A stretch of DNA of 56,260 nt, taken from sequence record PX583170.1; one strand, 5' to 3'. Below the pieces are notes generated by a model. That model was given only the letters and a program-made list of their open reading frames with translations. It had not been told where the DNA came from and ran no database searches. Of the stretch, positions 1 through 56,260 are shown piece by piece (position 1 is the stretch's first letter; every line of letters begins with the position of its first letter). The DNA is from a phage. The translations under genes were made by a program, and so were the position numbers.

Positions 1-135
1 CGGACTTAAAATACGGTCCCTACCCCAACTTTTTCCTACAGCCTATCGGCTTAATGATAACACCAAGTTAGGCGCTTCGCTTATGAGTCAAGGTCAAAGG
101 CAATCAGAGCACGCTGTTGTAACGAGCTAGTCTTA

Positions 136-157
136 CCATTAGTTGGTTGTGATTATG
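136..157 (+). promoter_or_regulatory. Promoter-motif copy P1 (candidate phage-RNAP promoter) upstream of the RNAP gene
   Basis: ccATTAGTTGGttgtgattatg; shares the CATTAGTTG core with 13 other sites. Confidence 0.4.
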
Positions 158-214
158 AATAGGCTACGCAAGTCTAATCCGTTTCAGTTAAATCATAATC
201 AATTGGAGACTATC

Positions 215-2329
215 ATGACTAATGAAGAATATCGTGCACTGGCTGCTGATGGCGCTCGCTTAAAAGAAGAAGGCCACGGTTGGAAAGACGTGCTTGATAC
301 GATGGACCGTTGCAACCAAATGGTTGATGAAATCACTACTGCTACACAATCCGAAACTAAAACCGAAACTAACTTGGAGACTCGCAAAATGACAACTATC
401 TCAACTCAAACTATCAAATCCGTTGTCCCTGCTATCACGGCTCTGGTATACCGTGCTAAAGAGAAACAGAACTACATGCAGCCTCAGACCTGTGCTATTG
501 CTGCTCTTGCAATCTTCAAGATGATGACCTCATTCACTCGTGATGATGTTGTCCCAGCCATTGCAATGGTTGAGCTGGCTTCTGCTTCTATTGCTGATGC
601 CAACCGTTATAACAACGATTTGAAAGCAATGCACTATGTTGACCCAGCTATCAACCTCATTGGTTTGGCTAAGCACTTTGGCTTCATTACCATGAACGAA
701 GACAAGTCATTCCAACAAACTGATACATGGGTTGAACTGGTTACAACCAAAGACACAGCAGTGCCATTCACTGAGCGTGTTACATCTGAATCTCGTCGCA
801 AGCCTTTCGTTAAAGGTGGCAAAGTTAAGCCATCCAAAACTTTGAAAGCTGCAATCGAATTCCTGCAAGATACTGAGTACCATGTGGAGACTGAGATGGT
901 TCGCATCATCCAGTCCATGCTTGAGCAACGTACCTACGGTGGTTTGCAGATGCCAGAAGCAATCCAGACTGAACTTCATGTTTGGAACAATGCTGTAGCA
1001 ATGATGAATCAGGATAAGCTGTATTCTGACTACTTTGCTGATAACCGTGGTCGCCTGTATCATGTAGCATGTGCTGGCCCTAACCCACAATCCTCTGACT
1101 TTGCTCGTTGCTTGTATTCTCACAATGTTGAGAACATCGTTAAGAAGTTTAACGAAGATGGTTCTACTACCATCGCATACAACATGTTCATGGCAGAGCT
1201 GGAAGATATTTCTGGTGGTGAATGGTGCAGTGCTAAGCGTTTAACTTATGTTGCTCAGAATCCAGCTGGTTCACTTGCTCGCATGATGAACATGCCTAAA
1301 GCTGAACGTCCTTCCAAGCCATTCACTTATGTTCGTCTGGCTCTGGATTGGTTCAAGTTTGAGACTACAGGTGAGTGCGATTCTCGTGTAGGCTTTGGCT
1401 TAGATGCTAAATGTTCTGGTACTCAATATCTGGCATTCATTGCTGGTAACATGGAAATGGCTCGTGCAACAGGTCTGGTTGATTCTGAGACTAAAGCATC
1501 TGACCCATACCAGTTATCTCTTCGTGAACTGTTGAAGTTACTCGACCGTTCTTCAATGAAGCCATCTCCTGAAATCATGGATGAGTTCTTGAATCCGAAA
1601 GCTGGTCGTAAGTTTATCAAAACTCCATACATGGCTATCCAATATGGTGGTGGTAAAGCAGCATTGACTGGTTCTTCTGACTTCATTAGCTACATGACAG
1701 AAGCTCTCCAGATTCCTATGGAGAAAGCTGAGGCATTTGCTGAACTGTGTGTAGAAGCAATCCATAACGCATTGGGTGCTAAGATTAACATGTTCATCGA
1801 GAAAGCTGCTGATGCTGCATACAATCGTTGTGTTGAACTTGGCAAAGAGTACATCACATATCGCCACACTGATGGTCAGGTTGTAATGAAGCCTTGCTTC
1901 CCATCTCGTGAAATCTGTGAGGCATTCAGCATTCGTGTTGATAGTCAAACTCGTGTTATCTTTGGTCAGATTCAGGAGAACAAGCCTTGGACCATTCGTG
2001 AGTCCAATCCAACTAAAGAAGAGTTCAAGCGTACCTTCGTTGTTAACTACATCCAAGGTATTGACGCATTGGTTGCTCGTACTGTTGCAGTTAAAGCTAA
2101 AGAAGCTGGTCTTCGTGGCTTTACTTCAATTCACGATTGTTTCCGTTGCTGCTTAGCTGATGCTCCACGTATGATGGAAGTTATTCGTGCAGCATATGTT
2201 GAAATCTTCGTAACCAACAATCAATTCGAGAATCTGTCTAAGCAACTCGGTGGCATTCAGATGTATCATGAGAACATCGTAACCGAAGAGCTTCTGATGA
2301 GCGAACATGCTTACTACTTCTGTCAATGA
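215..2329 (+). CDS. T7-like single-subunit DNA-dependent RNA polymerase (ORF opens at 143; ATG at 215 has SD ggaga)
   Basis: Motif A-like FGLDAKCSGTQYLAF (T7 DGSCSGIQHF), motif B-like KFIKTPYMAIQYGGG, motif C-like TSIHDCF (T7 HDSF). Shorter than T7 RNAP. Confidence 0.85.
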   Translation: MTNEEYRALAADGARLKEEGHGWKDVLDTMDRCNQMVDEITTATQSETKTETNLETRKMTTISTQTIKSVVPAITALVYRAKEKQNYMQPQTCAIAALAIFKMMTSFTRDDVVPAIAMVELASASIADANRYNNDLKAMHYVDPAINLIGLAKHFGFITMNEDKSFQQTDTWVELVTTKDTAVPFTERVTSESRRKPFVKGGKVKPSKTLKAAIEFLQDTEYHVETEMVRIIQSMLEQRTYGGLQMPEAIQTELHVWNNAVAMMNQDKLYSDYFADNRGRLYHVACAGPNPQSSDFARCLYSHNVENIVKKFNEDGSTTIAYNMFMAELEDISGGEWCSAKRLTYVAQNPAGSLARMMNMPKAERPSKPFTYVRLALDWFKFETTGECDSRVGFGLDAKCSGTQYLAFIAGNMEMARATGLVDSETKASDPYQLSLRELLKLLDRSSMKPSPEIMDEFLNPKAGRKFIKTPYMAIQYGGGKAALTGSSDFISYMTEALQIPMEKAEAFAELCVEAIHNALGAKINMFIEKAADAAYNRCVELGKEYITYRHTDGQVVMKPCFPSREICEAFSIRVDSQTRVIFGQIQENKPWTIRESNPTKEEFKRTFVVNYIQGIDALVARTVAVKAKEAGLRGFTSIHDCFRCCLADAPRMMEVIRAAYVEIFVTNNQFENLSKQLGGIQMYHENIVTEELLMSEHAYYFCQ

Positions 2330-2370
2330 TATTAATTGGTCAAGGATGACCACAAACTTGGAGACTTATA

Positions 2371-2571
2371 ATGAACATTCAACAAATCAATCAAATCGAA
2401 AACTGTTTCAATCCTCATCATACCTGTGACATGAGCAACTTATCTCGTCCTACAGTGGAGGAGACTAAAGACTTCTTAGAATTGTTAGCAGAATATAAAC
2501 AAGAATCGCATGTACTATTGCATGCATATTTGCACAATTCTGGATACTTTGATACAGAAATACCGTTCTGA
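2371..2571 (+). CDS. Hypothetical small protein (66 aa)
   Basis: ATG with SD ggaga 8 nt upstream; followed by a terminator. Confidence 0.5.
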   Translation: MNIQQINQIENCFNPHHTCDMSNLSRPTVEETKDFLELLAEYKQESHVLLHAYLHNSGYFDTEIPF

Positions 2572-2576
2572 TATTT

Positions 2577-2603
2577 GGGAGCTTCGGCTCCCTTTTCTTG
2601 TTT
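2577..2603 (+). terminator. Rho-independent terminator
   Basis: GGGAGC-ttcg-GCTCCC perfect 6-bp stem with UUCG loop, then ttttcttgttt. Confidence 0.75.
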
Positions 2604-2623
2604 CAACTAAGTCGCATAACTCA

Positions 2624-2645
2624 GCATTAGTTGTATGTGAATCTA
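2624..2645 (+). promoter_or_regulatory. Promoter-motif copy P2
   Basis: gCATTAGTTGtATGTGAATcta, directly after the terminator and 22 nt before the next gene. Confidence 0.5.
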
Positions 2646-2666
2646 ATAAACCATTTGGAGCATATC

Positions 2667-2834
2667 ATGTTTACAGTGACCTTAGTAACCTATTATGGCA
2701 AGCAAGTTTGTGAGAAGTTTGAGACTTTGAAAGAAGCCCGTGAGTTTGCAGCTCGTGAAGAGAATATTTATGTAGACTGTGAAATCACAGATGGTGATAA
2801 GCAGTATGAAGTTGTAGCTCCTACACTCAACTGA
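2667..2834 (+). CDS. Hypothetical small protein (55 aa; ORF opens at 2631)
   Basis: ATG at 2667 preceded by tttggag SD; the earlier TTG start lies inside the promoter motif. Confidence 0.45.
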   Translation: MFTVTLVTYYGKQVCEKFETLKEAREFAAREENIYVDCEITDGDKQYEVVAPTLN

Positions 2835-2848
2835 TTCCCAATATTCGG

Positions 2849-2858
2849 ACAATATTGT
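2849..2858. promoter_or_regulatory. Perfect 10-bp palindrome ACAATATTGT (operator-like)
   Basis: Self-complementary; flanked by aatattcgg and gcatgtaatattgt. Confidence 0.35.
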
Positions 2859-2884
2859 TGCATGTAATATTGTCCCGATATTCG

Positions 2885-2906
2885 ACATTAGTTGGATATG
2901 AAGTAA
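2885..2906 (+). promoter_or_regulatory. Promoter-motif copy P3
   Basis: aCATTAGTTGGATATGAAgtaa; followed by hairpin CGGAG-aaata-CTCCG at 2913..2927; no gene for ~1 kb downstream. Confidence 0.45.
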
Positions 2907-3277
2907 AGAATACGGAGAAATACTCCGCATGACATATTGAATCATTCTAGAAACATTCAGCATGTCAGCTTTGAGTTACAGTGTTGTAATGATGTGGCAA
3001 TCATTGAACTCCCTGGGTAGGCCACCTACAGTTCCAGCAACCATGACACAGAGTAGGAATATCTATCCGAAACTTGTACTTCACCTATAGCATGTCTATT
3101 AGCTACAGTATTGTTCCTTCTCCTATTATCAAGGCCCACCCACAAGCCGGGAGATAACTTTGACAAGACTGGAACTTTTGGACATGCTTCTTTCTTTCTA
3201 CAAGAATTTGAAAGAAGAGAAGAAGTCGGACTAAGCCTCTCGTTTTCACGCAGAAGCCGCCCCGATTTTGAGCAACA

Positions 3278-3955: not shown

Positions 3956-4174
3956 ATGACTCGTTTTAAAGATTTGGAAGATGGTGCAATCTTCTTTACG
4001 CGTGGTGGAGAACATCTGCAAAAAGTTTTGGAAGATGATGTTAATGTAAATGCTGTATTCGTTGGTGATTCTAACATTGGTGTTTTATTAAATGACAATG
4101 AGAGAACTTTTACAGAGGAGGAGTTTAAAGAAATCTCAGCCTCTGATTTAGTTCAAGAGCCAATTGAAGTTTAA
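3956..4174 (+). CDS. Hypothetical protein (72 aa)
   Basis: ATG with SD aggaga. Confidence 0.5.
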   Translation: MTRFKDLEDGAIFFTRGGEHLQKVLEDDVNVNAVFVGDSNIGVLLNDNERTFTEEEFKEISASDLVQEPIEV

Positions 4175-6723: not shown

Positions 6724-6745
6724 ACATTAGTTGAATGTGAATAAC
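6724..6745 (+). promoter_or_regulatory. Promoter-motif copy P6
   Basis: aCATTAGTTGaATGTGAATaac, 18 nt before the next gene. Confidence 0.5.
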
Positions 6746-7409: not shown

Positions 7410-7787
7410 ATGGCACAATATTCAGATGTAAACACTGGCATCATCGGCCCAAATGGCTTCAAGAAAGACCCAAAACATCCTGACGTTCGTGGACGTATTA
7501 ACGTTGACGGAATCTGGTATTGGGTATCTGGCTGGAACAAGCAAGCAAATGGTAATGAATTTACCTCGCTGGCACTCACCATCATGACTCAAGAACAGGT
7601 CGATGAAATGATGCGTAAGCGTGAGGAGAAAGCTAAAGCCAAAGCTCAACCTCAAGCTGCCGCTCAACAGCAACAGCAACGTCAACAGCCAACCCAGCAG
7701 CAGCAAACTCAGGCACAACAGCCTCAGAGTAATTCTGCATACAATCCGAACGAGCCGAAAGACTTCGACGACGACATTCCGTTCTAA
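7410..7787 (+). CDS. Small protein ending in the bacterial SSB tail DFDDDIPF (SSB-tail mimic or minimal SSB)
   Basis: ~70-aa N-terminal domain, Gln-rich linker, C-terminus KDFDDDIPF; the E. coli SSB tip is DFDDDIPF. Confidence 0.55.
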   Translation: MAQYSDVNTGIIGPNGFKKDPKHPDVRGRINVDGIWYWVSGWNKQANGNEFTSLALTIMTQEQVDEMMRKREEKAKAKAQPQAAAQQQQQRQQPTQQQQTQAQQPQSNSAYNPNEPKDFDDDIPF

Positions 7788-8811: not shown

Positions 8812-8999
8812 TTAACAGAGGTCATTCCACTTCGAGTGGCCTCGATTAATTATTGGAGGTTATATGTGGGACATATATCTTGAAGGTGTTGATGAACCAA
8901 TTTCAACACTTAATACACAATTTATTATAGTTGGGTGTGCAATTCTTTATAAAGGTAAGCTACACACTGTATCTAAAATAGTTCAGAGGCATTAATTCC

Positions 9000-10250: not shown

Positions 10251-10529
10251 ATGAATTACGAAGATATTCCAAGAGAGTTGAATGCACTAGAGTCAAGAAC
10301 CATCCGTGCAGAGAATATTCTCCACCAGCACCTATCAATTAACGTAGGTGATGAAAAGAAGATGCAGTACACTATGGAACTTGACGATGTAGTCTACACT
10401 GTCAGTTACAACGAGAAGGCTGCGATTCTCAGTGCGCTTATCAAAGGTGGGAATGAGCGAATCAATCAACTAAAAATTCTGGACACAGAATTGAGAGGCA
10501 CTTGGGAGAAACTAAATGCAAAACGATAA
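10251..10529 (+). CDS. Hypothetical protein (ORF opens at 10185)
   Basis: ATG at 10251 with SD ggag. Confidence 0.4.
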   Translation: MNYEDIPRELNALESRTIRAENILHQHLSINVGDEKKMQYTMELDDVVYTVSYNEKAAILSALIKGGNERINQLKILDTELRGTWEKLNAKR

Positions 10530-11076
10530 CATTACTCAAGCAGTAGAACAGCTTAAGTCCTGGCGTAAAGATGAAACCTTATTGGTTCGTTTCTACACAG
10601 ACACATATACAGGTGAAAACAGCTCTAAATTTGTAGATGCGTGGATTGATGGACTGTCTTGGCGCCACTATGATTTCGACATGCGGGAGTATTTGCATGA
10701 AGAATACGGCATTGAGTATCCAGAATCCGGTACATATGACGTAATTGAATCAAACGAAGAAGATGTTACCGAAGTTTGTTTTGTCAATGGTCTGTTCAGC
10801 ATTCGTAAGTATGATAAGTTCAATGAGCTGCTTGTTGATACCGATTTGGATGTAATTCTTGCAGCATTACGTAGTGGTGATATTGATATTTTCACTGTGG
10901 ATGACTTGAACGATATGGTCATTGCTCGGTGCGACTCAATTGTAGACTACTTTAAAAATTATGATGGCATAGAAGTTCCAGACCATCTTCGTCCATATAT
11001 CGATTGGGATGCAGTTGCGAGAGATTACGGAAGTGACTACACTTTCTCCGAAGGGATACTATTCTCAAATGCGTGA
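10516..11076 (+). CDS. Highly acidic hypothetical protein (186 aa)
   Basis: Asp/Glu/Tyr-rich throughout; strongly net-negative by eye. Confidence 0.5.
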   Translation: MQNDNITQAVEQLKSWRKDETLLVRFYTDTYTGENSSKFVDAWIDGLSWRHYDFDMREYLHEEYGIEYPESGTYDVIESNEEDVTEVCFVNGLFSIRKYDKFNELLVDTDLDVILAALRSGDIDIFTVDDLNDMVIARCDSIVDYFKNYDGIEVPDHLRPYIDWDAVARDYGSDYTFSEGILFSNA

Positions 11077-11308
11077 TTTAAATATCGCTGAACTTGAGGC
11101 TGGATTGATTGTTCACCACCAGCCTCGAAACACTTTCTATCGTATTCTTGGTCCTACAAAGATTAAAACTCACTGCGGAAGTTGGGTGGATGGGTTTGCT
11201 TACCAAGAAGTGAAGAAGTACGGGGACCATACTTTCTTAAGTATTGATTCTTCTACTATCTACACACGACCGAAAGAGCTATTTGACTCAGACTGGAAAA
11301 CACTATAG
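11069..11308 (+). CDS. Hypothetical protein (ORF opens at 11009)
   Basis: ATG at 11069 overlaps upstream stop (ATGCGTGA). Confidence 0.4.
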   Translation: MRDLNIAELEAGLIVHHQPRNTFYRILGPTKIKTHCGSWVDGFAYQEVKKYGDHTFLSIDSSTIYTRPKELFDSDWKTL

Positions 11309-11377
11309 TTCCAGGCGGGTTTCTTCGAAGTGCCAAGCGGGTTTTGTGCTCGCATTGGCCTTCGGCTTTAGTCTGAA

Positions 11378-11399
11378 ACATTAGTGGGATTTGATTCGG
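11378..11399 (+). promoter_or_regulatory. Promoter-motif variant P8
   Basis: aCATTAGTgGGATttgattcgg. Confidence 0.35.
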
Positions 11400-11517
11400 A
11401 CCACTTAGGGAAGAAAGGCATTATACACTTATCGCCAAATGGGTGTCAAGCACTTTCTTCATTTATTTAATTTATTCTTATTATTCTTTTTGTTTGGAAT
11501 ATTGGAATAATTCTGAA

Positions 11518-11539
11518 ACATTAGTTGGAATTGAATTAG
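11518..11539 (+). promoter_or_regulatory. Promoter-motif copy P9
   Basis: aCATTAGTTGGAATTGAATtag, with prefix ttctgaaa shared with P8 and P12. Confidence 0.45.
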
Positions 11540-11654
11540 TGTAATTCTGTCTGTACTCTTTTCCATTAGCAATTGTAGAGGAAGTCCACTGCAATAAGCG
11601 CAGCCTCAAACAACCAAGTCTGGACAACTTGGGAAGAGAGTGCAGCACAAAATT

Positions 11655-11676
11655 ACATTAGTTGGAATTGAAGAAA
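11655..11676 (+). promoter_or_regulatory. Promoter-motif copy P10
   Basis: aCATTAGTTGGAATTGAAgaaa. Confidence 0.45.
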
Positions 11677-12309
11677 CAACATCAGATAATAACTTTGTAA
11701 CTCGGTAGACCGTTGCGGCCGCATCGTGCGAGAATGTTCGACTCATTCTACAAAGTTATTTTCGATGGAATGTTTCCATCATATACATTTATCTTTTAAC
11801 ATAGGCCAAAGGGCCGGAATACTTATTCGCAGAAAAGCTATTCACTTGTTATAGGCGATGTATTGGGATGAATTGGAACTAAATAAGCAAGCTGTTAGGG
11901 CTGAATAATTAGAGGGTTATGCCTCATGCTTATGTTAGTCATTCGAAAATAGGTTTGTGCCACAAGCCGCTGGTGCTCTGAGGAAGTCGGACAAACAGGG
12001 CTTAGAGTGGCATAATCCGCACAAAACCGCGCCACCAGCTATGCCAAAGCAGGTGGTTTGGGTGAATGTATTGGGAAGGGTTGCAAAGCCTCTGTGACAC
12101 GCCTGAGCCGCAAGGCGACGACACTCATGTGATTAGCGTATCGCACCCTAACGGGAGTAACCCTTCGCCAATGCAGTTATCCAGAATTGACACAAACGGC
12201 AGGCAGTGGCCCGATTTTCGGCCCTCCTGCGCTGCCCTGTGGCCTGTTTCACGGGCTAAAAGATGAGAAGAGAAGTCACAAACACTGAATCGAAAATTGG
12301 AGAGTTCCT

Positions 12310-13584: not shown

Positions 13585-13613
13585 GTCGTTTGACGAATCA
13601 GAGCAGTTCTGAA

Positions 13614-13635
13614 ACATTAGTTGGATGTGGAAAGA
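13614..13635 (+). promoter_or_regulatory. Promoter-motif copy P12
   Basis: aCATTAGTTGGATGTGgAAaga. Confidence 0.5.
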
Positions 13636-13707: not shown

Positions 13708-14046
13708 ATGGCTAAGATTGTAACCGTAACTCAGTACGAAGCTAACGATGGTTCCCTGTTCCTGACCGAAGCAGAGTGTAATGCACATGACTTCAAACTG
13801 GAAAACGGTGCTAAAATTGAGAAAGCTGCCGAAGCGTACCTGAATACCGTTGGTGCTATCGACCGTTCTCGCTCCATGCAGAAGAACACCATCGAGCAGT
13901 TCCTGGCATTCTACCTGCCGTGGGTTGAAGCTGGCGAGCCAGAAGTTGAGCGTACTAAGTTCGATACTCCGAAAGAAGCTAAAGTTGCTGACGCAAGTGT
14001 TGCCGAAGCTGCCGAAGCTGCTGTTGAAGAAGCTCCGGTATTCTAA
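13708..14046 (+). CDS. Hypothetical acidic protein with host-like codon usage (112 aa)
   Basis: SD aaggta; CTG/CGT/GAA/CCG-rich; acidic C-terminus ending EEAPVF. Confidence 0.55.
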   Translation: MAKIVTVTQYEANDGSLFLTEAECNAHDFKLENGAKIEKAAEAYLNTVGAIDRSRSMQKNTIEQFLAFYLPWVEAGEPEVERTKFDTPKEAKVADASVAEAAEAAVEEAPVF

Positions 14047-14413
14047 GTTGCCGATGGCAAACTTGAGAGACTAAGCTAAATCGATCTGGCATGCACTGGA
14101 AGATCGTCCGGTGCTGCCTTGAACCCGCTCTGAAAGGAAGAGTGGGCTTCAATGAGCATTCTTGTGATTAGAGTTGGGAGGAAGGCCGATGCCCAAGCTC
14201 ATGGCCCAGACGAGAGTGTTCATTGAAGTTATTTCAATTTGTGCATAATTCAAACACCAGTGCATGAGCCTTCGACGGAAGGCAATGTTGGGAAATTTGT
14301 TGTGTACAAATTGAAGTAGTTTTCTGAGTCTTACGACGGGCCTAAACTGCCTGGAGTTATTGCGACTGTTTTATTCATTTAAAATAAATGCAAATGATTC
14401 TGAAATGCGAGTT

Positions 14414-14711
14414 GCGGCTTAATTAAATTTAAGTCCTCTCCGTGGTCTTCCAATCCCACGTAACCAAATTTGGCGCATTGTGGCTTCGAGATGTGATTAA
14501 TAAATCGGAGCAATAATTAATTTGTATTCTGCGATGCAATGCAGGCTTAAGTCCTCCAGTGCGCGTGGGGATGTGACAGAGTACAAACTTAATTATTAAT
14601 TTGTATTCTGGTGTTGTTCGCCAAGATTGGTGCACTCATGATTGGTAGTGTTGGGGAGCGCGGAGCCTAAAATATTATGTGGCATCTCCTACCAGAGTAC
14701 AAACTTAATTA
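14414..14711. repeat. Degenerate tandem copies of a ~70-120 bp non-coding element
   Basis: Exact repeats: ttaagtcctc (14429, 14547), attaatttgtattctg (14516, 14595), cagagtacaaacttaatta (14577, 14693). Confidence 0.6.
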
Positions 14712-15147
14712 TGCAGTTGGATATTTCTAGAGGACGGACGAGCACACTGGAATGTCTTCAATTGGTTTAGTGTGAGAAGCTATGCCAATTTGAAACGTAA
14801 CTCCTTGAGGAAGTGCTCCTCTGGATTTCCCTCCACACAGGAATCTCAAGCCTGTGGCAGTGACTTCGAAGCTGCACTGCGTAACCTAATTCACCCTAAA
14901 GTGAGTTGCCCTGAGCATGGAAATAAACTGCTCAAACCAATGATGCCCACAAAGGTGGGATAAGTTAGGTTGCCTGTTGGTACTTGGGTTCAACACCTGC
15001 TTGCACTCGCAAAGTAGTGCCTCGTACCTGAGATGAAGTGAGTCGGGACCATCAATCCCACGTTATGTCAAAACACAGTAGGCGGCTCACAGATTCTACA
15101 AGCCTCGCAGTTCGGGAAAACCTGCGTTATCAAAACCCACCCAATTT

Positions 15148-15240
15148 GGACGAGTAGCTCAGAAGGTCTGCTCCAGAGCTTAGTCAGGTAGAGCAATCTG
15201 TTCGACAGATGTGTCGTTGGTTCGAATCCAACCTCGTCCA
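15148..15240 (+). tRNA. tRNA-like gene, unusually long (93 nt); anticodon tentatively CAG (Leu)
   Basis: Perfect 7-bp acceptor stem GGACGAG/CTCGTCC, canonical T-arm GTTGG-TTCGAAT-CCAAC, discriminator A; loop GTCAGGT at 15183..15189; the D-arm could not be folded by eye. Confidence 0.5.
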
Positions 15241-15269
15241 CCCACTTTCAACAATAACATGGAGTCCTC

Positions 15270-15410
15270 ATGGACATTGATGCACTAGACAATTTGGACT
15301 TCGGTGCTGCCGAAGAAGCCATTGAAGAACTAAAGAAAAAGCAGGACGAAGAAGCAATCGTTCCTGGTGCTGGCGATAATGACTGCTCAAGCGGTGCGTG
15401 TGCCATCTAA
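15270..15410 (+). CDS. Hypothetical small acidic peptide (46 aa)
   Basis: ATG with SD ggag; ends GAGDNDCSSGACAI; below the ORF-track cutoff. Confidence 0.3.
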   Translation: MDIDALDNLDFGAAEEAIEELKKKQDEEAIVPGAGDNDCSSGACAI

Positions 15411-15418
15411 GGTGATTT

Positions 15419-15655
15419 ATGCAACAGCTTAAATCAGTAATTCTTGGCGTCCTGACTGCATTTGGCATTCTTATTGCAGTGTTCCTCAAAGGCAAAAGCT
15501 CAGGCAAAGCCGAGGAGCGTCAGGAAGCCACAGAGAAGCAACTAGATTCATTAAAAGAATCTATCGAGATTAAATCGCATGTTCAGAAAGAAGTGTCTAG
15601 CAGTTCTGATAGCAATGTCGATAGTGAGTTGCTCTCAAAGTGGGTTCGTAAGTGA
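15419..15655 (+). CDS. Hypothetical small membrane protein (78 aa)
   Basis: N-terminal hydrophobic segment VILGVLTAFGILIAVFL. Confidence 0.4.
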   Translation: MQQLKSVILGVLTAFGILIAVFLKGKSSGKAEERQEATEKQLDSLKESIEIKSHVQKEVSSSSDSNVDSELLSKWVRK

Positions 15656-16625
15656 TTACTGCTTGATTGCACAACCAATTTATTTGGATGTTGCAGAAGT
15701 AAAAATCTTATCACGCGAAACCAAAACACAGATTTTAGTCCACAATGAAACGTGGGCACAAAAGTGTTCGAAACTTACCCGACAGTGAGTTGAACAAAAT
15801 GCTCGCCATCGCATGAACAACATTTGGCAGTCCGGTACGGGACTTTAAACACACGTATATCATAGTCGAGGGAGTGCGCGACTTTAAATAACGAGACTCT
15901 AGCCACTTGTGGTATGGCAGGTGTAACTCCTGCAATTGCTCTGGGCATAACAATTAAAATTGCTGCCTCGTATTGAACGCGAGAAAGTTCAGGTAGTCAC
16001 TTCCTAGAACAGTGGCCGGGAACATACCTAGACAAAAGTGCTTGAGAACGTTAGCTCTGTCTTGCCAGCATTAATGGCACGTTGGCCGCGTAAAGGCCAC
16101 AGCGTCTGGCCAACGTATCGGCCACCAAATTCAATGGGCTAGTGCAAATGTCAGTCACTAGAAGATGTGTTGCAAAACGTCTTCCACGATGTGCAAAGTG
16201 TCAGTCACGTGCCCGCCAATTTCCTCCAACAGTTATGCCTCTGTTCAAAAGGCTCAAGAGAGCGTCTGGCATACCGTAGCGATACGGCTTAGTTGCGCTG
16301 ATTGTGTTGTGCAGAAAGAAAGTTCAGGCTTTCGTTTGGGTTACTCCTCATCCCGAAGTTAGCTGGATTCAAAATCCAGACTATGTTCCTATACACATGA
16401 AATATGCAAGTCGAGGGTTCTTAATGTTCAAACATGATGCGAGCATTAAGCGGGTTTATACTTTTCCCCGATGGTCCCCATAAACAAGGCTGATTCACTT
16501 GGGCGGTTCGAATCAAATTTAATAAGTGTCTTGGCCGCAGTGGAAACATCATTTAAGCCAATGTATTGTAATGTTCGTAATAGTCCACGTCAGGACACTT
16601 ACTTAAATTTTAACTGGAGAGAAAC

Positions 16626-19396: not shown

Positions 19397-21331
19397 GTGT
19401 TGTATCCTTGGGAAAATATGTATGCCAGTGACATTGAAACAACTGGTCTGTTGGAGCAAATGCGCAAGCAAGCTGCACCACGTCTTCACAACATCGGATA
19501 TATTGATGTTCTAACTCGTGAAGAAACTGTAATAGAGTGGACCGACAGAAAATCTATCCAGGCATTTCTGGACACAGGCCCAACATTAATCATGCACAAC
19601 GGCGCAACCTTTGACTTTGAAGCACTGAGGTTCCTTGGTTACGACGTTTCAAAATGTACCTTAATTGATACTTTGTTTATCAGTTGGTATCTGCAACCTC
19701 GTCGTGTTAAGCACGGCTTAGAAGGTTACGGCGAAGAGTTTGGCGTGCCAAAACCAGTCATTGAAGATTGGGAAAATCAAACTCAAGAAGAATACAACCA
19801 TCGTGTGATGGAAGACTGCAAGATTCAGTTGAAGCTGTGGGAACAGCAATACATTCAACTCTTGAAGATTTATAAATCTCCTAGCGAAGTTAAGCGCTTC
19901 GTTGAATACCTGATGACAAAAGCTCGTCAACAAGTTATTCAACAACGTACTCGCTGGAAGCTGAACATTGAGAAGGCATTGGCGTTTAAGGCCAAGCTGG
20001 AACCAATGATTAAAGAGAAGACGGACGCATTGGAAGCATCAATGCCGCGTGTTCCGGAATATGTTATCAAAACCCGTCCAGCTAAATGCCACAAGATGAA
20101 CGGGCAACTGTCTGCCACTGGGATTAAGTGGAAGGCTATTTGTGATGCAAACGGTTTGGATTGGAAAGACCCAGACCTGGCTATCAAAGTTCTTAAAGGT
20201 TATAAGAAGCCTAATGCTGGTTCCCATGTTCAAATTAAGGATTGGTTGTTCAGCTTAGGCTGGGAACCAGAAACCTTTAAGTTTGACCGCAACAAGGAAA
20301 CGGGTGAAACTCGCCAGATTCCTCAAATCACTGTGAAGGATGAAGATGGCAATCCTGAAATATGTCCGAGCTTGCATAAGCTGGCGGAAAGAAACCCCGA
20401 CTCTGGTATTCAACATCTTATTGGGATGGGCGTGTATAAACACCGTCTGTCTGTTGTTAATGGCTTCCTTCGCGACGTCGATGAAGATGGGTTCCTTACT
20501 GCACGATGCGGTGGCCTTACCAATACTTTACGCCTTAAACATCGCGAACTTGTTAACCTCCCTTCTATTCGTGTATTTGGCGGTGAAGAACTGCGTTCAA
20601 TGTTGGAAGCGTGGCGCGAAGACTACGAACAGTTAGGTTCTGACTTGTGTTCTTTGGAAGACCGCTGTAAGCACCACTTCCAATGGATGTATGACCCTGA
20701 ATACGTTAAGAAGCAGTTGGCACCAGACTATGATGCTCACCTTGCAATTGGCGTAATTGGTGGATTTATTACTGAACAGGAATCTCAGGACCACAAGGAC
20801 GGAATTAAGAAGTGTAAACAACGTCCAATGTTTAAGACCACAAACTATGCTTGTCAGTATGGTGCTGGTGTACCAACTGTAGCCCGTTCTGCTGGCTGTG
20901 ACCAGACCACTGCTGCACGACTGCATAAAGCATATTGGGACTTGAACTGGTCTATTAAAGAGATTGCTGCAAACACCAAAGTTATCACAGTTGATGGTCA
21001 GATGTGGCAACAGAATCCAGTAAACAAATTCTGGTATTCGTTGCGTACAGAGAAAGACCGCTTCTCCACATTGTGTCAGGGTACTGGTGCATATGTGTTT
21101 GATGTTTGGTGTAACAACATCATTGCAATTTGTAACGAACGTTGGGGCTGTGACCCGCTTCTGTCTGGACAATTCCACGATGAATTGATTCTCCAAGTTA
21201 AGAAAGGTTTCCGTGATTTATGGACGGACTTGCTTAATGAAGCAATGGACCGAACCAACAAAGAACTTAAACTTAACCGTGATTGTGCATGTGATGTACA
21301 GTTCGGTGATAACTACGCAGAGATTCACTAA
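19397..21331 (+). CDS. Family A DNA polymerase with 3'-5' exonuclease domain
   Basis: Exo I DIETTGL; motif B-like RPMFKTTNYACQYGAG; motif C-like QFHDELIL. Confidence 0.85.
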   Translation: MLYPWENMYASDIETTGLLEQMRKQAAPRLHNIGYIDVLTREETVIEWTDRKSIQAFLDTGPTLIMHNGATFDFEALRFLGYDVSKCTLIDTLFISWYLQPRRVKHGLEGYGEEFGVPKPVIEDWENQTQEEYNHRVMEDCKIQLKLWEQQYIQLLKIYKSPSEVKRFVEYLMTKARQQVIQQRTRWKLNIEKALAFKAKLEPMIKEKTDALEASMPRVPEYVIKTRPAKCHKMNGQLSATGIKWKAICDANGLDWKDPDLAIKVLKGYKKPNAGSHVQIKDWLFSLGWEPETFKFDRNKETGETRQIPQITVKDEDGNPEICPSLHKLAERNPDSGIQHLIGMGVYKHRLSVVNGFLRDVDEDGFLTARCGGLTNTLRLKHRELVNLPSIRVFGGEELRSMLEAWREDYEQLGSDLCSLEDRCKHHFQWMYDPEYVKKQLAPDYDAHLAIGVIGGFITEQESQDHKDGIKKCKQRPMFKTTNYACQYGAGVPTVARSAGCDQTTAARLHKAYWDLNWSIKEIAANTKVITVDGQMWQQNPVNKFWYSLRTEKDRFSTLCQGTGAYVFDVWCNNIIAICNERWGCDPLLSGQFHDELILQVKKGFRDLWTDLLNEAMDRTNKELKLNRDCACDVQFGDNYAEIH

Positions 21332-21603
21332 TGAAAATTGTATATTCTATTTACGATATGCAGGAGTTAGAGCACCATATGTTTGCTACTGATTCCGAAG
21401 TTCTCGCAAAGGACGCTGTAATGGCGTTTCTTGAAAAGATTAAGGGCAACGTATTCGCTTCGTCCGACCCACAGTCTCAAGCACTTAATGACGAAACATT
21501 TAAAAACATCCAAACTTTAATCTCGGCAACGACTTCGATTGAAGAGCTGTCCGAAGTATTAGTTGGATATGACTTCCAGCTTGCAATGTTGCAAGTTGAT
21601 TAA
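21331..21603 (+). CDS. Hypothetical protein (90 aa)
   Basis: TAATG overlap with the polymerase stop. Confidence 0.45.
   Translation: MKIVYSIYDMQELEHHMFATDSEVLAKDAVMAFLEKIKGNVFASSDPQSQALNDETFKNIQTLISATTSIEELSEVLVGYDFQLAMLQVD
21556..21577 (+). promoter_or_regulatory. Promoter-motif copy P13 (inside the 3' end of the preceding gene)
   Basis: gtATTAGTTGGATATGActtcc, 58 nt before the next start. Confidence 0.4.
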
Positions 21604-52701: not shown

Positions 52702-53168
52702 AAGAGTAATATTAGGAATGCGTAAAGTTCAAAACCAAATGGTACATGGTCGGTCAACTGTACCTCCTTCGGAGAAGGTACCTGGATAGAAATTCGTTCA
52801 TGGTCGGTCAGCTGTATCTAGCCGAAATTTGTTCGAACAGTTGTCTGACTATGAAATAAATTTTTTTTTATAATTTTTTTTTTATTTTTAAATATTGCTA
52901 CAGAATTAATGAGACTAGAATTCGTAACAAAGCTACGAGACTCGAATTGTTTCAATATTAACGAGACTCAATCTGTGACAATATTATAATTTTTATTTTT
53001 GGGCCAGCGGGGAGGGGAAGCCCAACGTCCTATCGGACTTAAAATACGGTCCCTACCCCAACTTTTTCCTACAGCCTATCGGCTTAATGATAACACCAAG
53101 TTAGGCGCTTCGCTTATGAGTCAAGGTCAAAGGCAATCAGAGCACGCTGTTGTAACGAGCTAGTCTTA

Positions 53169-53190
53169 CCATTAGTTGGTTGTGATTATG
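53169..53190 (+). promoter_or_regulatory. Promoter-motif copy P1 (right repeat copy)
   Basis: Identical to 136..157. Confidence 0.4.
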
Positions 53191-53247
53191 AATAGGCTAC
53201 GCAAGTCTAATCCGTTTCAGTTAAATCATAATCAATTGGAGACTATC

Positions 53248-55362
53248 ATGACTAATGAAGAATATCGTGCACTGGCTGCTGATGGCGCTCGCTTAAAAGA
53301 AGAAGGCCACGGTTGGAAAGACGTGCTTGATACGATGGACCGTTGCAACCAAATGGTTGATGAAATCACTACTGCTACACAATCCGAAACTAAAACCGAA
53401 ACTAACTTGGAGACTCGCAAAATGACAACTATCTCAACTCAAACTATCAAATCCGTTGTCCCTGCTATCACGGCTCTGGTATACCGTGCTAAAGAGAAAC
53501 AGAACTACATGCAGCCTCAGACCTGTGCTATTGCTGCTCTTGCAATCTTCAAGATGATGACCTCATTCACTCGTGATGATGTTGTCCCAGCCATTGCAAT
53601 GGTTGAGCTGGCTTCTGCTTCTATTGCTGATGCCAACCGTTATAACAACGATTTGAAAGCAATGCACTATGTTGACCCAGCTATCAACCTCATTGGTTTG
53701 GCTAAGCACTTTGGCTTCATTACCATGAACGAAGACAAGTCATTCCAACAAACTGATACATGGGTTGAACTGGTTACAACCAAAGACACAGCAGTGCCAT
53801 TCACTGAGCGTGTTACATCTGAATCTCGTCGCAAGCCTTTCGTTAAAGGTGGCAAAGTTAAGCCATCCAAAACTTTGAAAGCTGCAATCGAATTCCTGCA
53901 AGATACTGAGTACCATGTGGAGACTGAGATGGTTCGCATCATCCAGTCCATGCTTGAGCAACGTACCTACGGTGGTTTGCAGATGCCAGAAGCAATCCAG
54001 ACTGAACTTCATGTTTGGAACAATGCTGTAGCAATGATGAATCAGGATAAGCTGTATTCTGACTACTTTGCTGATAACCGTGGTCGCCTGTATCATGTAG
54101 CATGTGCTGGCCCTAACCCACAATCCTCTGACTTTGCTCGTTGCTTGTATTCTCACAATGTTGAGAACATCGTTAAGAAGTTTAACGAAGATGGTTCTAC
54201 TACCATCGCATACAACATGTTCATGGCAGAGCTGGAAGATATTTCTGGTGGTGAATGGTGCAGTGCTAAGCGTTTAACTTATGTTGCTCAGAATCCAGCT
54301 GGTTCACTTGCTCGCATGATGAACATGCCTAAAGCTGAACGTCCTTCCAAGCCATTCACTTATGTTCGTCTGGCTCTGGATTGGTTCAAGTTTGAGACTA
54401 CAGGTGAGTGCGATTCTCGTGTAGGCTTTGGCTTAGATGCTAAATGTTCTGGTACTCAATATCTGGCATTCATTGCTGGTAACATGGAAATGGCTCGTGC
54501 AACAGGTCTGGTTGATTCTGAGACTAAAGCATCTGACCCATACCAGTTATCTCTTCGTGAACTGTTGAAGTTACTCGACCGTTCTTCAATGAAGCCATCT
54601 CCTGAAATCATGGATGAGTTCTTGAATCCGAAAGCTGGTCGTAAGTTTATCAAAACTCCATACATGGCTATCCAATATGGTGGTGGTAAAGCAGCATTGA
54701 CTGGTTCTTCTGACTTCATTAGCTACATGACAGAAGCTCTCCAGATTCCTATGGAGAAAGCTGAGGCATTTGCTGAACTGTGTGTAGAAGCAATCCATAA
54801 CGCATTGGGTGCTAAGATTAACATGTTCATCGAGAAAGCTGCTGATGCTGCATACAATCGTTGTGTTGAACTTGGCAAAGAGTACATCACATATCGCCAC
54901 ACTGATGGTCAGGTTGTAATGAAGCCTTGCTTCCCATCTCGTGAAATCTGTGAGGCATTCAGCATTCGTGTTGATAGTCAAACTCGTGTTATCTTTGGTC
55001 AGATTCAGGAGAACAAGCCTTGGACCATTCGTGAGTCCAATCCAACTAAAGAAGAGTTCAAGCGTACCTTCGTTGTTAACTACATCCAAGGTATTGACGC
55101 ATTGGTTGCTCGTACTGTTGCAGTTAAAGCTAAAGAAGCTGGTCTTCGTGGCTTTACTTCAATTCACGATTGTTTCCGTTGCTGCTTAGCTGATGCTCCA
55201 CGTATGATGGAAGTTATTCGTGCAGCATATGTTGAAATCTTCGTAACCAACAATCAATTCGAGAATCTGTCTAAGCAACTCGGTGGCATTCAGATGTATC
55301 ATGAGAACATCGTAACCGAAGAGCTTCTGATGAGCGAACATGCTTACTACTTCTGTCAATGA
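53248..55362 (+). CDS. T7-like single-subunit RNA polymerase, second copy
   Basis: Protein identical to 215..2329. Confidence 0.85.
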   Translation: MTNEEYRALAADGARLKEEGHGWKDVLDTMDRCNQMVDEITTATQSETKTETNLETRKMTTISTQTIKSVVPAITALVYRAKEKQNYMQPQTCAIAALAIFKMMTSFTRDDVVPAIAMVELASASIADANRYNNDLKAMHYVDPAINLIGLAKHFGFITMNEDKSFQQTDTWVELVTTKDTAVPFTERVTSESRRKPFVKGGKVKPSKTLKAAIEFLQDTEYHVETEMVRIIQSMLEQRTYGGLQMPEAIQTELHVWNNAVAMMNQDKLYSDYFADNRGRLYHVACAGPNPQSSDFARCLYSHNVENIVKKFNEDGSTTIAYNMFMAELEDISGGEWCSAKRLTYVAQNPAGSLARMMNMPKAERPSKPFTYVRLALDWFKFETTGECDSRVGFGLDAKCSGTQYLAFIAGNMEMARATGLVDSETKASDPYQLSLRELLKLLDRSSMKPSPEIMDEFLNPKAGRKFIKTPYMAIQYGGGKAALTGSSDFISYMTEALQIPMEKAEAFAELCVEAIHNALGAKINMFIEKAADAAYNRCVELGKEYITYRHTDGQVVMKPCFPSREICEAFSIRVDSQTRVIFGQIQENKPWTIRESNPTKEEFKRTFVVNYIQGIDALVARTVAVKAKEAGLRGFTSIHDCFRCCLADAPRMMEVIRAAYVEIFVTNNQFENLSKQLGGIQMYHENIVTEELLMSEHAYYFCQ

Positions 55363-55403
55363 TATTAATTGGTCAAGGATGACCACAAACTTGGAGACTT
55401 ATA

Positions 55404-55604
55404 ATGAACATTCAACAAATCAATCAAATCGAAAACTGTTTCAATCCTCATCATACCTGTGACATGAGCAACTTATCTCGTCCTACAGTGGAGGAGACTA
55501 AAGACTTCTTAGAATTGTTAGCAGAATATAAACAAGAATCGCATGTACTATTGCATGCATATTTGCACAATTCTGGATACTTTGATACAGAAATACCGTT
55601 CTGA
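55404..55604 (+). CDS. Hypothetical small protein, second copy
   Basis: Identical to 2371..2571. Confidence 0.5.
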   Translation: MNIQQINQIENCFNPHHTCDMSNLSRPTVEETKDFLELLAEYKQESHVLLHAYLHNSGYFDTEIPF

Positions 55605-55609
55605 TATTT

Positions 55610-55636
55610 GGGAGCTTCGGCTCCCTTTTCTTGTTT
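55610..55636 (+). terminator. Rho-independent terminator, second copy
   Basis: Identical to 2577..2603. Confidence 0.75.
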
Positions 55637-55656
55637 CAACTAAGTCGCATAACTCA

Positions 55657-55678
55657 GCATTAGTTGTATGTGAATCTA
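55657..55678 (+). promoter_or_regulatory. Promoter-motif copy P2 (right repeat copy)
   Basis: Identical to 2624..2645. Confidence 0.5.
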
Positions 55679-55699
55679 ATAAACCATTTGGAGCATATC

Positions 55700-55867
55700 A
55701 TGTTTACAGTGACCTTAGTAACCTATTATGGCAAGCAAGTTTGTGAGAAGTTTGAGACTTTGAAAGAAGCCCGTGAGTTTGCAGCTCGTGAAGAGAATAT
55801 TTATGTAGACTGTGAAATCACAGATGGTGATAAGCAGTATGAAGTTGTAGCTCCTACACTCAACTGA
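55700..55867 (+). CDS. Hypothetical small protein, second copy
   Basis: Identical to 2667..2834. Confidence 0.45.
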   Translation: MFTVTLVTYYGKQVCEKFETLKEAREFAAREENIYVDCEITDGDKQYEVVAPTLN

Positions 55868-55917
55868 TTCCCAATATTCGGACAATATTGTTGCATGTAA
55901 TATTGTCCCGATATTCG

Positions 55918-55939
55918 ACATTAGTTGGATATGAAGTAA
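55918..55939 (+). promoter_or_regulatory. Promoter-motif copy P3 (right repeat copy)
   Basis: Identical to 2885..2906. Confidence 0.45.
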
Positions 55940-56260
55940 AGAATACGGAGAAATACTCCGCATGACATATTGAATCATTCTAGAAACATTCAGCATGTCA
56001 GCTTTGAGTTACAGTGTTGTAATGATGTGGCAATCATTGAACTCCCTGGGTAGGCCACCTACAGTTCCAGCAACCATGACACAGAGTAGGAATATCTATC
56101 CGAAACTTGTACTTCACCTATAGCATGTCTATTAGCTACAGTATTGTTCCTTCTCCTATTATCAAGGCCCACCCACAAGCCGGGAGATAACTTTGACAAG
56201 ACTGGAACTTTTGGACATGCTTCTTTCTTTCTACAAGAATTTGAAAGAAGAGAAGAAGTC

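Follow-up and report, generated by a model that had tools for sequence, protein, structure and literature searches.

A probable remote member of the ArdA antirestriction family, and a 112-residue core protein with no sign of DNA mimicry, in a phiEcoM-GJ1/ST32-like myophage

The window analyzed here is the whole 56,260-nucleotide stretch of phage DNA in record PX583170.1, which, judged by its sequence, is the complete genome of a phiEcoM-GJ1/ST32-like myophage (Chaseviridae, Carltongylesvirus). A 4.4-kb query around the two genes under study matched 60 phage records at 85 to 95% identity, the best matches being the Escherichia phages vB_EcoM_SA91KD (SA91KD), Bp10, Bp7, TH53, and ST32, all Chaseviridae of the genus Carltongylesvirus (phiEcoM-GJ1 group). 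Positions 1-3227 are identical to 53034-56260 and form an exact direct terminal repeat of 3,227 bp, so that the window consists of one 53,033-bp genome plus its own direct terminal repeat, an arrangement described for the phiEcoM-GJ1 group (PMC8762354; PMC9699118). The repeat holds the entire open reading frame (ORF) of a 724-aa T7-like RNA polymerase (RNAP; 155-2329), together with a promoter-like copy at 136, and there are therefore two RNAP gene copies per genome. All genes in the window lie on the plus strand, and about 15 copies of the phage-RNAP promoter motif ACATTAGTTGGA(W)KTGAA were found. Scanning of the entire window for Rfam families and tRNAs gave no match, no sigma-70 site on the plus strand rose above chance, and a literature search retrieved no transcriptome of a Chaseviridae phage.

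Two genes of this genome, encoding proteins of 186 and 112 aa, had been proposed in an earlier sequence-only reading as sources of strongly acidic DNA mimics, and both ORFs were present exactly as given there (Table 1). The Shine-Dalgarno-like sequence of the 186-aa gene is also the ribosome binding site listed for ST32 gp26 (PMC6266442). The gene shares a polycistronic unit with an M15 endolysin gene. Its downstream neighbor, a 79-aa gene, is probably translationally coupled to it, since the two overlap at the stop and start codons; this neighbor ends the unit, and a hairpin and three phage promoters come next. The 186-aa gene lacks a phage promoter copy of its own; going upstream, the closest promoters of the phage type lie at 6724 and 7321, and a terminator-like hairpin (8818-8843) is located between them and the gene. 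Very early expression is useful for antirestriction, and the position of this gene 10 kb from the genome end, in a unit with an endolysin and lacking a recognizable promoter of its own, counts against an assignment to ArdA, from whose leading-region early operons it differs in this respect.

Table 1. Features of the two loci and their immediate surroundings (positions refer to the window)
Feature	Position	Strand	Remarks
Shine-Dalgarno-like GGGAGA	10504..10509	+	6 nt before ATG of the ArdA-like gene; read from sequence
Predicted ArdA-family antirestriction gene	10516..11076	+	186 aa, pI 4.09, net charge -26; ortholog of phiEcoM-GJ1 gp22, ST32 gp26, SA91KD_28
Putative counterpart of the ArdA "antirestriction motif," codons 154-170	10975..11025	+	VPDHLRPYIDWDAVARD; family-HMM alignment
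Putative counterpart of the essential ArdA "VF motif" (I160-F161), codons 182-183	11059..11064	+	L182-F183; family-HMM alignment
79-aa gene, phrog_2652	11069..11308	+	ATG overlaps stop of the ArdA-like gene (ATGCGTGA); SA91KD annotation
Phage-RNAP promoter copies in the ORF-free stretch 11309-12300	11378, 11518, 11655	+	
Phage-RNAP promoter copy dedicated to the 112-aa gene	13612..13631	+	AAACATTAGTTGGATGTGGA; 77 nt upstream of the gene
112-aa Chaseviridae core gene	13708..14046	+	phiEcoM-GJ1 gp29 ortholog; phrog_17419 (unknown function)
Disordered, length-variable Ala/Glu/Val/Pro-rich acidic tail of the 112-aa protein, codons 89-112	13972..14043	+	ends P-V-F; pLDDT 44-61
Two tandem stable hairpins after the 112-aa stop codon	14088..14152	+	MFE z = -3.8

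The ORF-free stretch of about 1 kb downstream of the 79-aa gene also contains, on the minus strand, the sole perfect sigma-70 consensus of the window (11420-11449; TTGACA-N18-TATAAT, with TG just upstream of the -10 element). This site is directed antisense to the 79-aa and 186-aa genes, and its copy in SA91KD is identical. It could mark a replication origin or serve as a promoter for an antisense or small RNA.

Calculation of pI and charge distribution, one of the checks suggested beforehand, bore out the acidity of the 186-aa protein. Its 41 acidic residues (26 Asp and 15 Glu) compare with 15 basic ones (6 Lys and 9 Arg), and its charge of -0.140 per residue is the second most negative among 60 genes (z = -2.6) and the most negative among the genome's proteins of at least 100 aa. 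Tyrosine (13 residues) accounts for 7.0% of the protein, versus a genome mean of 3.4%. The description of the sequence as rich in Asp, Glu, and Tyr with few basic residues was thus accurate as to composition, and nearly so as to its extending throughout, with the first ~40 residues about neutral and the remainder negative. Among homologues sharing only 20 to 35% identity, net charge ranged from -15 to -39; as strong negative charge is kept at such low identity, the acidity looks selected rather than accidental. Strong acidity had been claimed for the 112-aa protein as well, for which it proved overstated (net charge -10; -0.089 per residue, sixth in the genome; z = -1.5; pI 4.49). Overall, the original observation was partly confirmed and its interpretation partly supported.

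Direct comparison linked the 186-aa protein to ArdA only below accepted cutoffs. The Pfam ArdA model (PF07275) matched with 19.9 bits (E = 1.3e-3) over residues 131-177 only, i.e., the C-terminal 47 residues, below the Pfam gathering threshold of 27 bits. A phmmer search of the PDB returned no match, ArdA included, and a Foldseek search of the PDB with the predicted model was likewise empty; NCBIfam had no match for either the 186-aa or the 112-aa protein. A narrow family profile found ArdA in the PDB only at an E value of 0.18, behind noise matches to PriL, and tblastn against 72,556 plasmids gave one marginal match (E = 0.1). The protein thus showed essentially undetectable pairwise similarity to the ArdAs of plasmids and transposons. 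Since the direct Pfam match was subthreshold and phmmer empty, the link was tested in stages via intermediates. Among 5.8 billion proteins, 48 relatives were found, almost all at least 68% identical; one of them, P0047 (41% identity), bears a precomputed PF07275 match. When 1.84 billion representatives were searched exhaustively with an HMMER profile, 120 proteins scored at E < 1e-3, and of 40 diverse relatives drawn from these, 32 matched PF07275 at E < 1e-3. Several full-length relatives scored above the PF07275 threshold, among them two with 41 to 44% identity to the 186-aa protein (P0047, 36.1 bits; P0137, 32.5 bits) and P0153, which reached 41.3 bits over model positions 17-144. Finally, hhalign was used to align a profile restricted to the Chaseviridae clade (A5) with a profile of ten proteins that each score at least 27 bits on PF07275 (A4); the probability was 99.1% and the E value 1.1e-18 across 169 columns (1-182 versus 1-178, both full lengths). 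The broad family profile matched the solved ArdA structure 2w82 at E = 7.5e-5; a weak match of its N-terminal region to YqaI (2dsm, E = 0.002) counts against the assignment. Taken at the level of sequence profiles, this full-length homology justifies the label ArdA despite the failed Pfam cutoff.

The label itself is not new. PHROG phrog_14321 ("anti-restriction protein") matched the 186-aa protein end to end (E = 1e-52), and orthologs in phiEcoM-GJ1 (gp22), ST32, SA91KD, Mangalitsa, 4HA13, PM1, PP101, and others are annotated as "(putative) antirestriction protein," a designation carried by relatives since 2008. As gene family, mechanism, and annotation are already on record, the present result adds rigor rather than discovery, namely, a proper test of ArdA membership that supports the existing label. 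Other annotations suggest that the protein has nothing to do with antirestriction and that its acidity is incidental: the ortholog is called "tail fiber protein" in MLP1, PYps3T/4T/16T/23T, and FXie-2024a and "replication inhibitor protein" in Pel53. We consider such a role highly improbable, given the strength of the ArdA homology (hhalign, 99.1%) and the failure to find sequence or fold support for either designation. A structural function is further opposed by the location of the gene in the nonstructural left arm and by the absence of the protein among the 15 proteins of a 4HA13 virion preparation (PMC9699118). In a literature search, no experiments on any Chaseviridae homologue were found. 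Identity of the protein within the Chaseviridae spans 24 to 91%, indicating fast evolution, as for counter-defense genes. An ArdA-like gene is also present near the left end of Aeromonas phage T7-Ah (1489-1815), roughly the position that gene 0.3 occupies in T7.

Structure prediction, the second check proposed, pointed in the same direction. An AlphaFold2 model built on the family alignment of the 186-aa protein (pLDDT 79.8) comprises an N-terminal helix, followed by three strands and one helix, then four helices, and then three strands and three helices. This order of elements fits the published description of ArdA (PMC2731889), so the model is consistent with the elongated ArdA fold and its three domains (a beta-sheet with a helix, a four-helix bundle, and a unit of three strands and three helices). 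For residue mapping, residues 108-161 of 2w82 were placed on the family HMM by alignment, which paired V130, P131, L134, Y137, I138, D139, R145, and D146 of Tn916 ArdA with V154, P155, L158, Y161, I162, D163, R169, and D170 of the phage protein. These lie in the "antirestriction motif," which forms the dimer interface in Tn916 ArdA; according to McMahon et al., L134, Y137, I138, D139, and D146, as well as the VF motif, are essential or interface forming there (PMC2731889). Across 40 homologues, the corresponding columns contained Y161 in 32, I162 in 29, D163 in 33, and D170 in 30, and F183 of the VF motif counterpart was invariant (40/40). With the ArdAs grouped under PF07275 (Tn916 Orf18, PDB 2w82; ColIb-P9/pKM101), the phage protein thus shares length (~165 to 190 aa), a pI of ~4, a large and conserved negative charge, the three-domain order of elements, the motif L..YID......RD, and the C-terminal hydrophobic-Phe motif. 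It differs from them in an extra N-terminal helix and in a 4-residue deletion, common to its clade, at the conserved E122/E123 of Tn916 ArdA, which counts against the assignment, and, unlike the ArdAs of conjugative elements, it is encoded by a virulent myophage.

T7 Ocr, the product of gene 0.3, had been named as the archetype for such proteins. The two share a strategy, in that both are phage encoded, very acidic, and expected to act as DNA mimics against type I restriction-modification (R-M) systems. The fitting archetype, however, is ArdA: Ocr came up in none of the sequence and fold searches with the 186-aa protein, and no relationship of sequence or fold to it was seen. Ocr is all helical, 116 aa long, and encoded by the first gene to enter the cell, whereas the 186-aa gene lies far from the genome end.

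ArdA proteins form homodimers, in which surface carboxylates arrayed in a helix imitate about 42 bp of DNA, and they inhibit type I restriction (and modification) in vivo and bind HsdM2S in vitro. As a DNA-mimic family that blocks type I R-M enzymes, they are established both experimentally and structurally (PMC2731889). By analogy with the ArdAs of Tn916 and ColIb-P9, the 186-aa protein would fold into three small domains in line and would dimerize via its C-terminal domain through the conserved L158/Y161/I162/D163/D170 patch. The dimer would then display a long negative surface, a carboxylate array imitating bent B-form DNA, and by the mechanism described for the family (PMC2731889) we infer that this surface would bind HsdMS, filling the DNA-binding groove of the type I HsdM2S core (in HsdM2S or R2M2S enzymes). 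The unmodified phage genome would thereby be neither bound nor cut, which would protect it in vivo. The genome contains 3 EcoKI sites versus 8.5 ± 2.8 expected, a mild depletion, and 11 EcoBI sites versus 12.7 expected. With sites for both enzymes present, it is a potential type I substrate, and the depletion of EcoKI sites hints that protection may be incomplete.

An ArdA fold might also serve another or an additional DNA-binding target, such as BREX, type III, or some other defense or host protein, or the protein might mainly be sensed by decoy systems. The clade is very remote from characterized ArdAs, its fast evolution in the Chaseviridae is expected of an arms-race gene, and DNA mimics, which may act promiscuously, trigger sensing by both Ronin and EcoR22I (bioRxiv 10.1101/2023.04.06.535777). 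We nevertheless regard this as unlikely: the 186-aa protein retains the structural motifs by which the family is defined, nothing pointed positively to a different target, and every ArdA tested, from diverse elements, inhibits type I systems (PMC2731889; PMC3969726). The best overall explanation is probably that the 186-aa protein is a remote, phage-borne member of the ArdA family and that the 112-aa protein is a separate matter and, on present evidence, not a DNA mimic. A virulent coliphage family used in biocontrol would accordingly carry a predicted ArdA-type inhibitor of type I restriction, which bears on host range and is relevant to decoy immune systems that sense DNA mimics (PARIS, Ronin, and EcoR22I-like).

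The 112-aa gene was described correctly in most of its particulars. Its own promoter copy was found and is identical to an annotated promoter of SA91KD (locus L001, 5525-5544), and at the position equivalent to the hairpins behind its stop codon, a terminator is annotated in SA91KD (L001 6001-6040). Dedicated promoter and downstream hairpins indicate that the gene is monocistronic. The host-like codon usage was confirmed by the highest E. coli codon adaptation index (CAI) among 60 genes (0.68, versus 0.64 for the major capsid gene; Sharp-Li weights), and the tail ending EEAPVF was seen. A monocistronic and maximally codon-optimized core gene presumably yields a very abundant protein. Gene order is fixed in these phages: the ArdA gene is followed by two conserved genes of unknown function, the 112-aa gene, and then helicase-primase and DNA polymerase. 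We found the 112-aa gene in 81 phage records, always as "hypothetical," and many Carltongylesvirus genomes share the protein at 100% identity. When 5.8 billion proteins were searched with a profile, Chaseviridae orthologs alone were returned, and two "bacterial" contigs bearing the gene turned out to be Chaseviridae phage genomes.

AlphaFold2 modeled the 112-aa protein (pLDDT 75.7) as a beta-hairpin (residues 10-18) and two helices (21-48 and 52-74) followed by a low-confidence tail, a generic helical hairpin that gave no informative fold match, and the profile search of the PDB had zero matches. The head is conserved, with invariant residues including Y10, D14, G15, S16, F18, H27, R53, S54, R55, E81, and R82 and then a VERTxFDTPK segment. 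Tails in the family are 25 to 40 residues long and variable in both length and sequence (27% Ala, 27% Asp plus Glu, 13% Val, 9% Pro). Of 95 homologues, 91 have Phe as the final residue; Pro occupies -3 in 55/95, and V, L, M, or A stands at -2.

The proposal that this protein is an Ocr-like or Gam-like DNA mimic drew on features that do exist, namely, its low pI, presumed abundance, helical character, size near that of Ocr, and dedicated promoter. We judge it very unlikely. Of the 116 residues of Ocr, 34 are acidic and 6 basic (PMC4872106); the 112-aa protein has 21 and 11, an ordinary charge density. Of its net charge, the folded 88 residues carry only -6; the remaining -4 falls in the variable, disordered Ala/Glu/Val/Pro-rich linker of the tail. 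Instead of an array of acidic residues, its invariant positions feature R53, R55, R82, and K89. Known mimics are usually fast evolving, whereas the 112-aa protein shows 100% identity among phages whose DNA diverges by 5 to 10%. Homology to known DNA mimics was not detected, and neither profile nor fold comparison gave a match to Ocr, ArdA, Gam, or gp5.9. Related genomes, moreover, have a separate gene of the gp5.9 family. The 112-aa protein therefore shows no sign of DNA mimicry. In two Chaseviridae-like genomes, the gene of the T7 gp5.9 family (RecBCD inhibitor) lies shortly downstream of the 112-aa ortholog (L007 8933-9175; L008 4943-5185), and one gp5.9-bearing genome of this kind was assembled within an Enterobacter ludwigii contig; no gp5.9-family counterpart was recognized in the window. 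A role of the 112-aa protein as RecBCD inhibitor was down-weighted, as its relatives carry this separate gene. By composition, a better candidate for a DNA mimic is a 72-aa protein (3956-4174, plus strand; phrog_2183), the genome's most acidic per residue (net charge -11, -0.153 per residue, pI 4.14).

Pfam searches with the 112-aa family gave only subthreshold noise matches to YebG, Dak2, and SpoIIE. Several members matched YebG (PF07130) at E values of 0.009 to 0.08, the matches lying on the N-terminal beta-hairpin and helix, and one member is named "dsDNA-binding SOS-regulon protein" by JGI. Like YebG, the protein is small and combines an N-terminal beta-hairpin and helix, with a ...F.t..EA.AhD... 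motif, with an acidic C terminus, and the family has conserved Arg and Lys residues. It might accordingly be a YebG-like SOS-type DNA-binding protein whose acidic tail regulates nucleic acid binding by its own basic patch. This is improbable, however: the matches scored 13 to 16 bits (at best 16.4 bits, E = 0.009, model positions 3-41 only) against a cutoff of 27.5 bits over the 74-position model and covered only ~30 residues, and the window's own protein had no match to the Pfam model. Comparison with E. coli YebG by hhalign gave a probability of 1.4% (the E. coli sequence used was validated by its full-length PF07130 match, E = 4e-34). The "bacterial" contigs were, as noted, Chaseviridae genomes, and YebG itself has no known function.

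A place in the virion, as a decoration, internal, or ejected protein, is suggested by the detection of the 4HA13 ortholog (AC4HA13_0029) by LC-MS/MS at 53% coverage in CsCl-purified phage (PMC9699118 Table S2), and the CAI comparable to that of the capsid gene is in keeping with it. SSB, a nonstructural protein, was found in the same preparation, which shows that abundant nonstructural proteins are carried over, so that detection of the ortholog mainly indicates high abundance. The gene also has the early region on one side and the replication module on the other, with the structural genes 12 kb away, and a virion role appears doubtful to us. A 9.5-kDa hypothetical protein, AC4HA13_0041, was likewise among the proteins detected in purified 4HA13 phage.

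From the architecture of the tail alone, the 112-aa protein may tentatively be viewed as a protein-protein adaptor, whose acidic, Phe-terminated tip would dock into the pocket of a replication or repair partner, in the manner of the T7 gp2.5 and bacterial SSB tails, which are likewise acidic and end in Phe. For gp2.5, the function of this tail and of its final Phe has been described (PMC12339929). As in SSB and gp2.5, the tail is predicted to be disordered and acidic, with Pro or a hydrophobic residue ahead of the C-terminal Phe, and the protein is presumed to be abundant and is encoded beside the replication module. Unlike them, it has no OB fold, and its tip (P-[VLM]-F) differs from that of SSB ([IL]-P-F) or gp2.5 (D-F). 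The SSB tip, an acidic run followed by [IL]-P-F-COOH, was not found: the protein ends in E-E-A-P-V-F and the family in [E/G]-x-P-[VLMA]-F, where Pro occupies -3 instead of -2. A clamp-binding motif (QLxLF) in the tail was rejected, since the required positions hold no conserved Gln or Leu.

The phage encodes a separate SSB of 125 aa (7410-7787, plus strand), which ends KDFDDDIPF. Unlike the 112-aa protein, it carries the exact tip of E. coli SSB (...DFDDDIPF), an indication that it connects to the SSB interactome of the host. Inside the terminal repeat, a 66-aa acidic protein (2371-2571, plus strand; repeated at 55404-55604) ends DTEIPF. The N4-like phage G7C has a homologue of it, gp1.2 (L011 61-276), which is also located in a terminal repeat and ends ETGCPF, and an x-P-F C terminus is thus conserved across two phage families. 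Possibly, the 66-aa protein competes, as an immediate-early product, for the sites that bind SSB tails. A bolder and, in our estimate, quite unlikely possibility is that the 112-aa protein is a new abundant "tail-decoy" or hub protein, which would act alongside the phage SSB with its host-type tip and the immediate-early 66-aa protein ending IPF, competing with or redirecting the partners of SSB-type tails in replication, repair, or defense. Only the 112-aa core protein and this cluster of SSB-tip-like C termini offer leads with some novelty, and the 112-aa gene, apparently the most highly expressed nonstructural gene of the phage family, is the more rewarding target for experiments.

Two further observations concern the region beyond the 112-aa gene. 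A 90-aa acidic protein (pI 4.28) is encoded directly after the DNA polymerase gene (21331-21603, plus strand). The stretches 14150-15270 and 15800-16600, both located between the genes for the 112-aa protein and thymidylate synthase, contain no convincing ORF on either strand, and no Rfam family or tRNA was detected in them; they flank a spanin pair, consisting of an ORF at 15419-15655 and an embedded lipoprotein ORF at 15579-15788.
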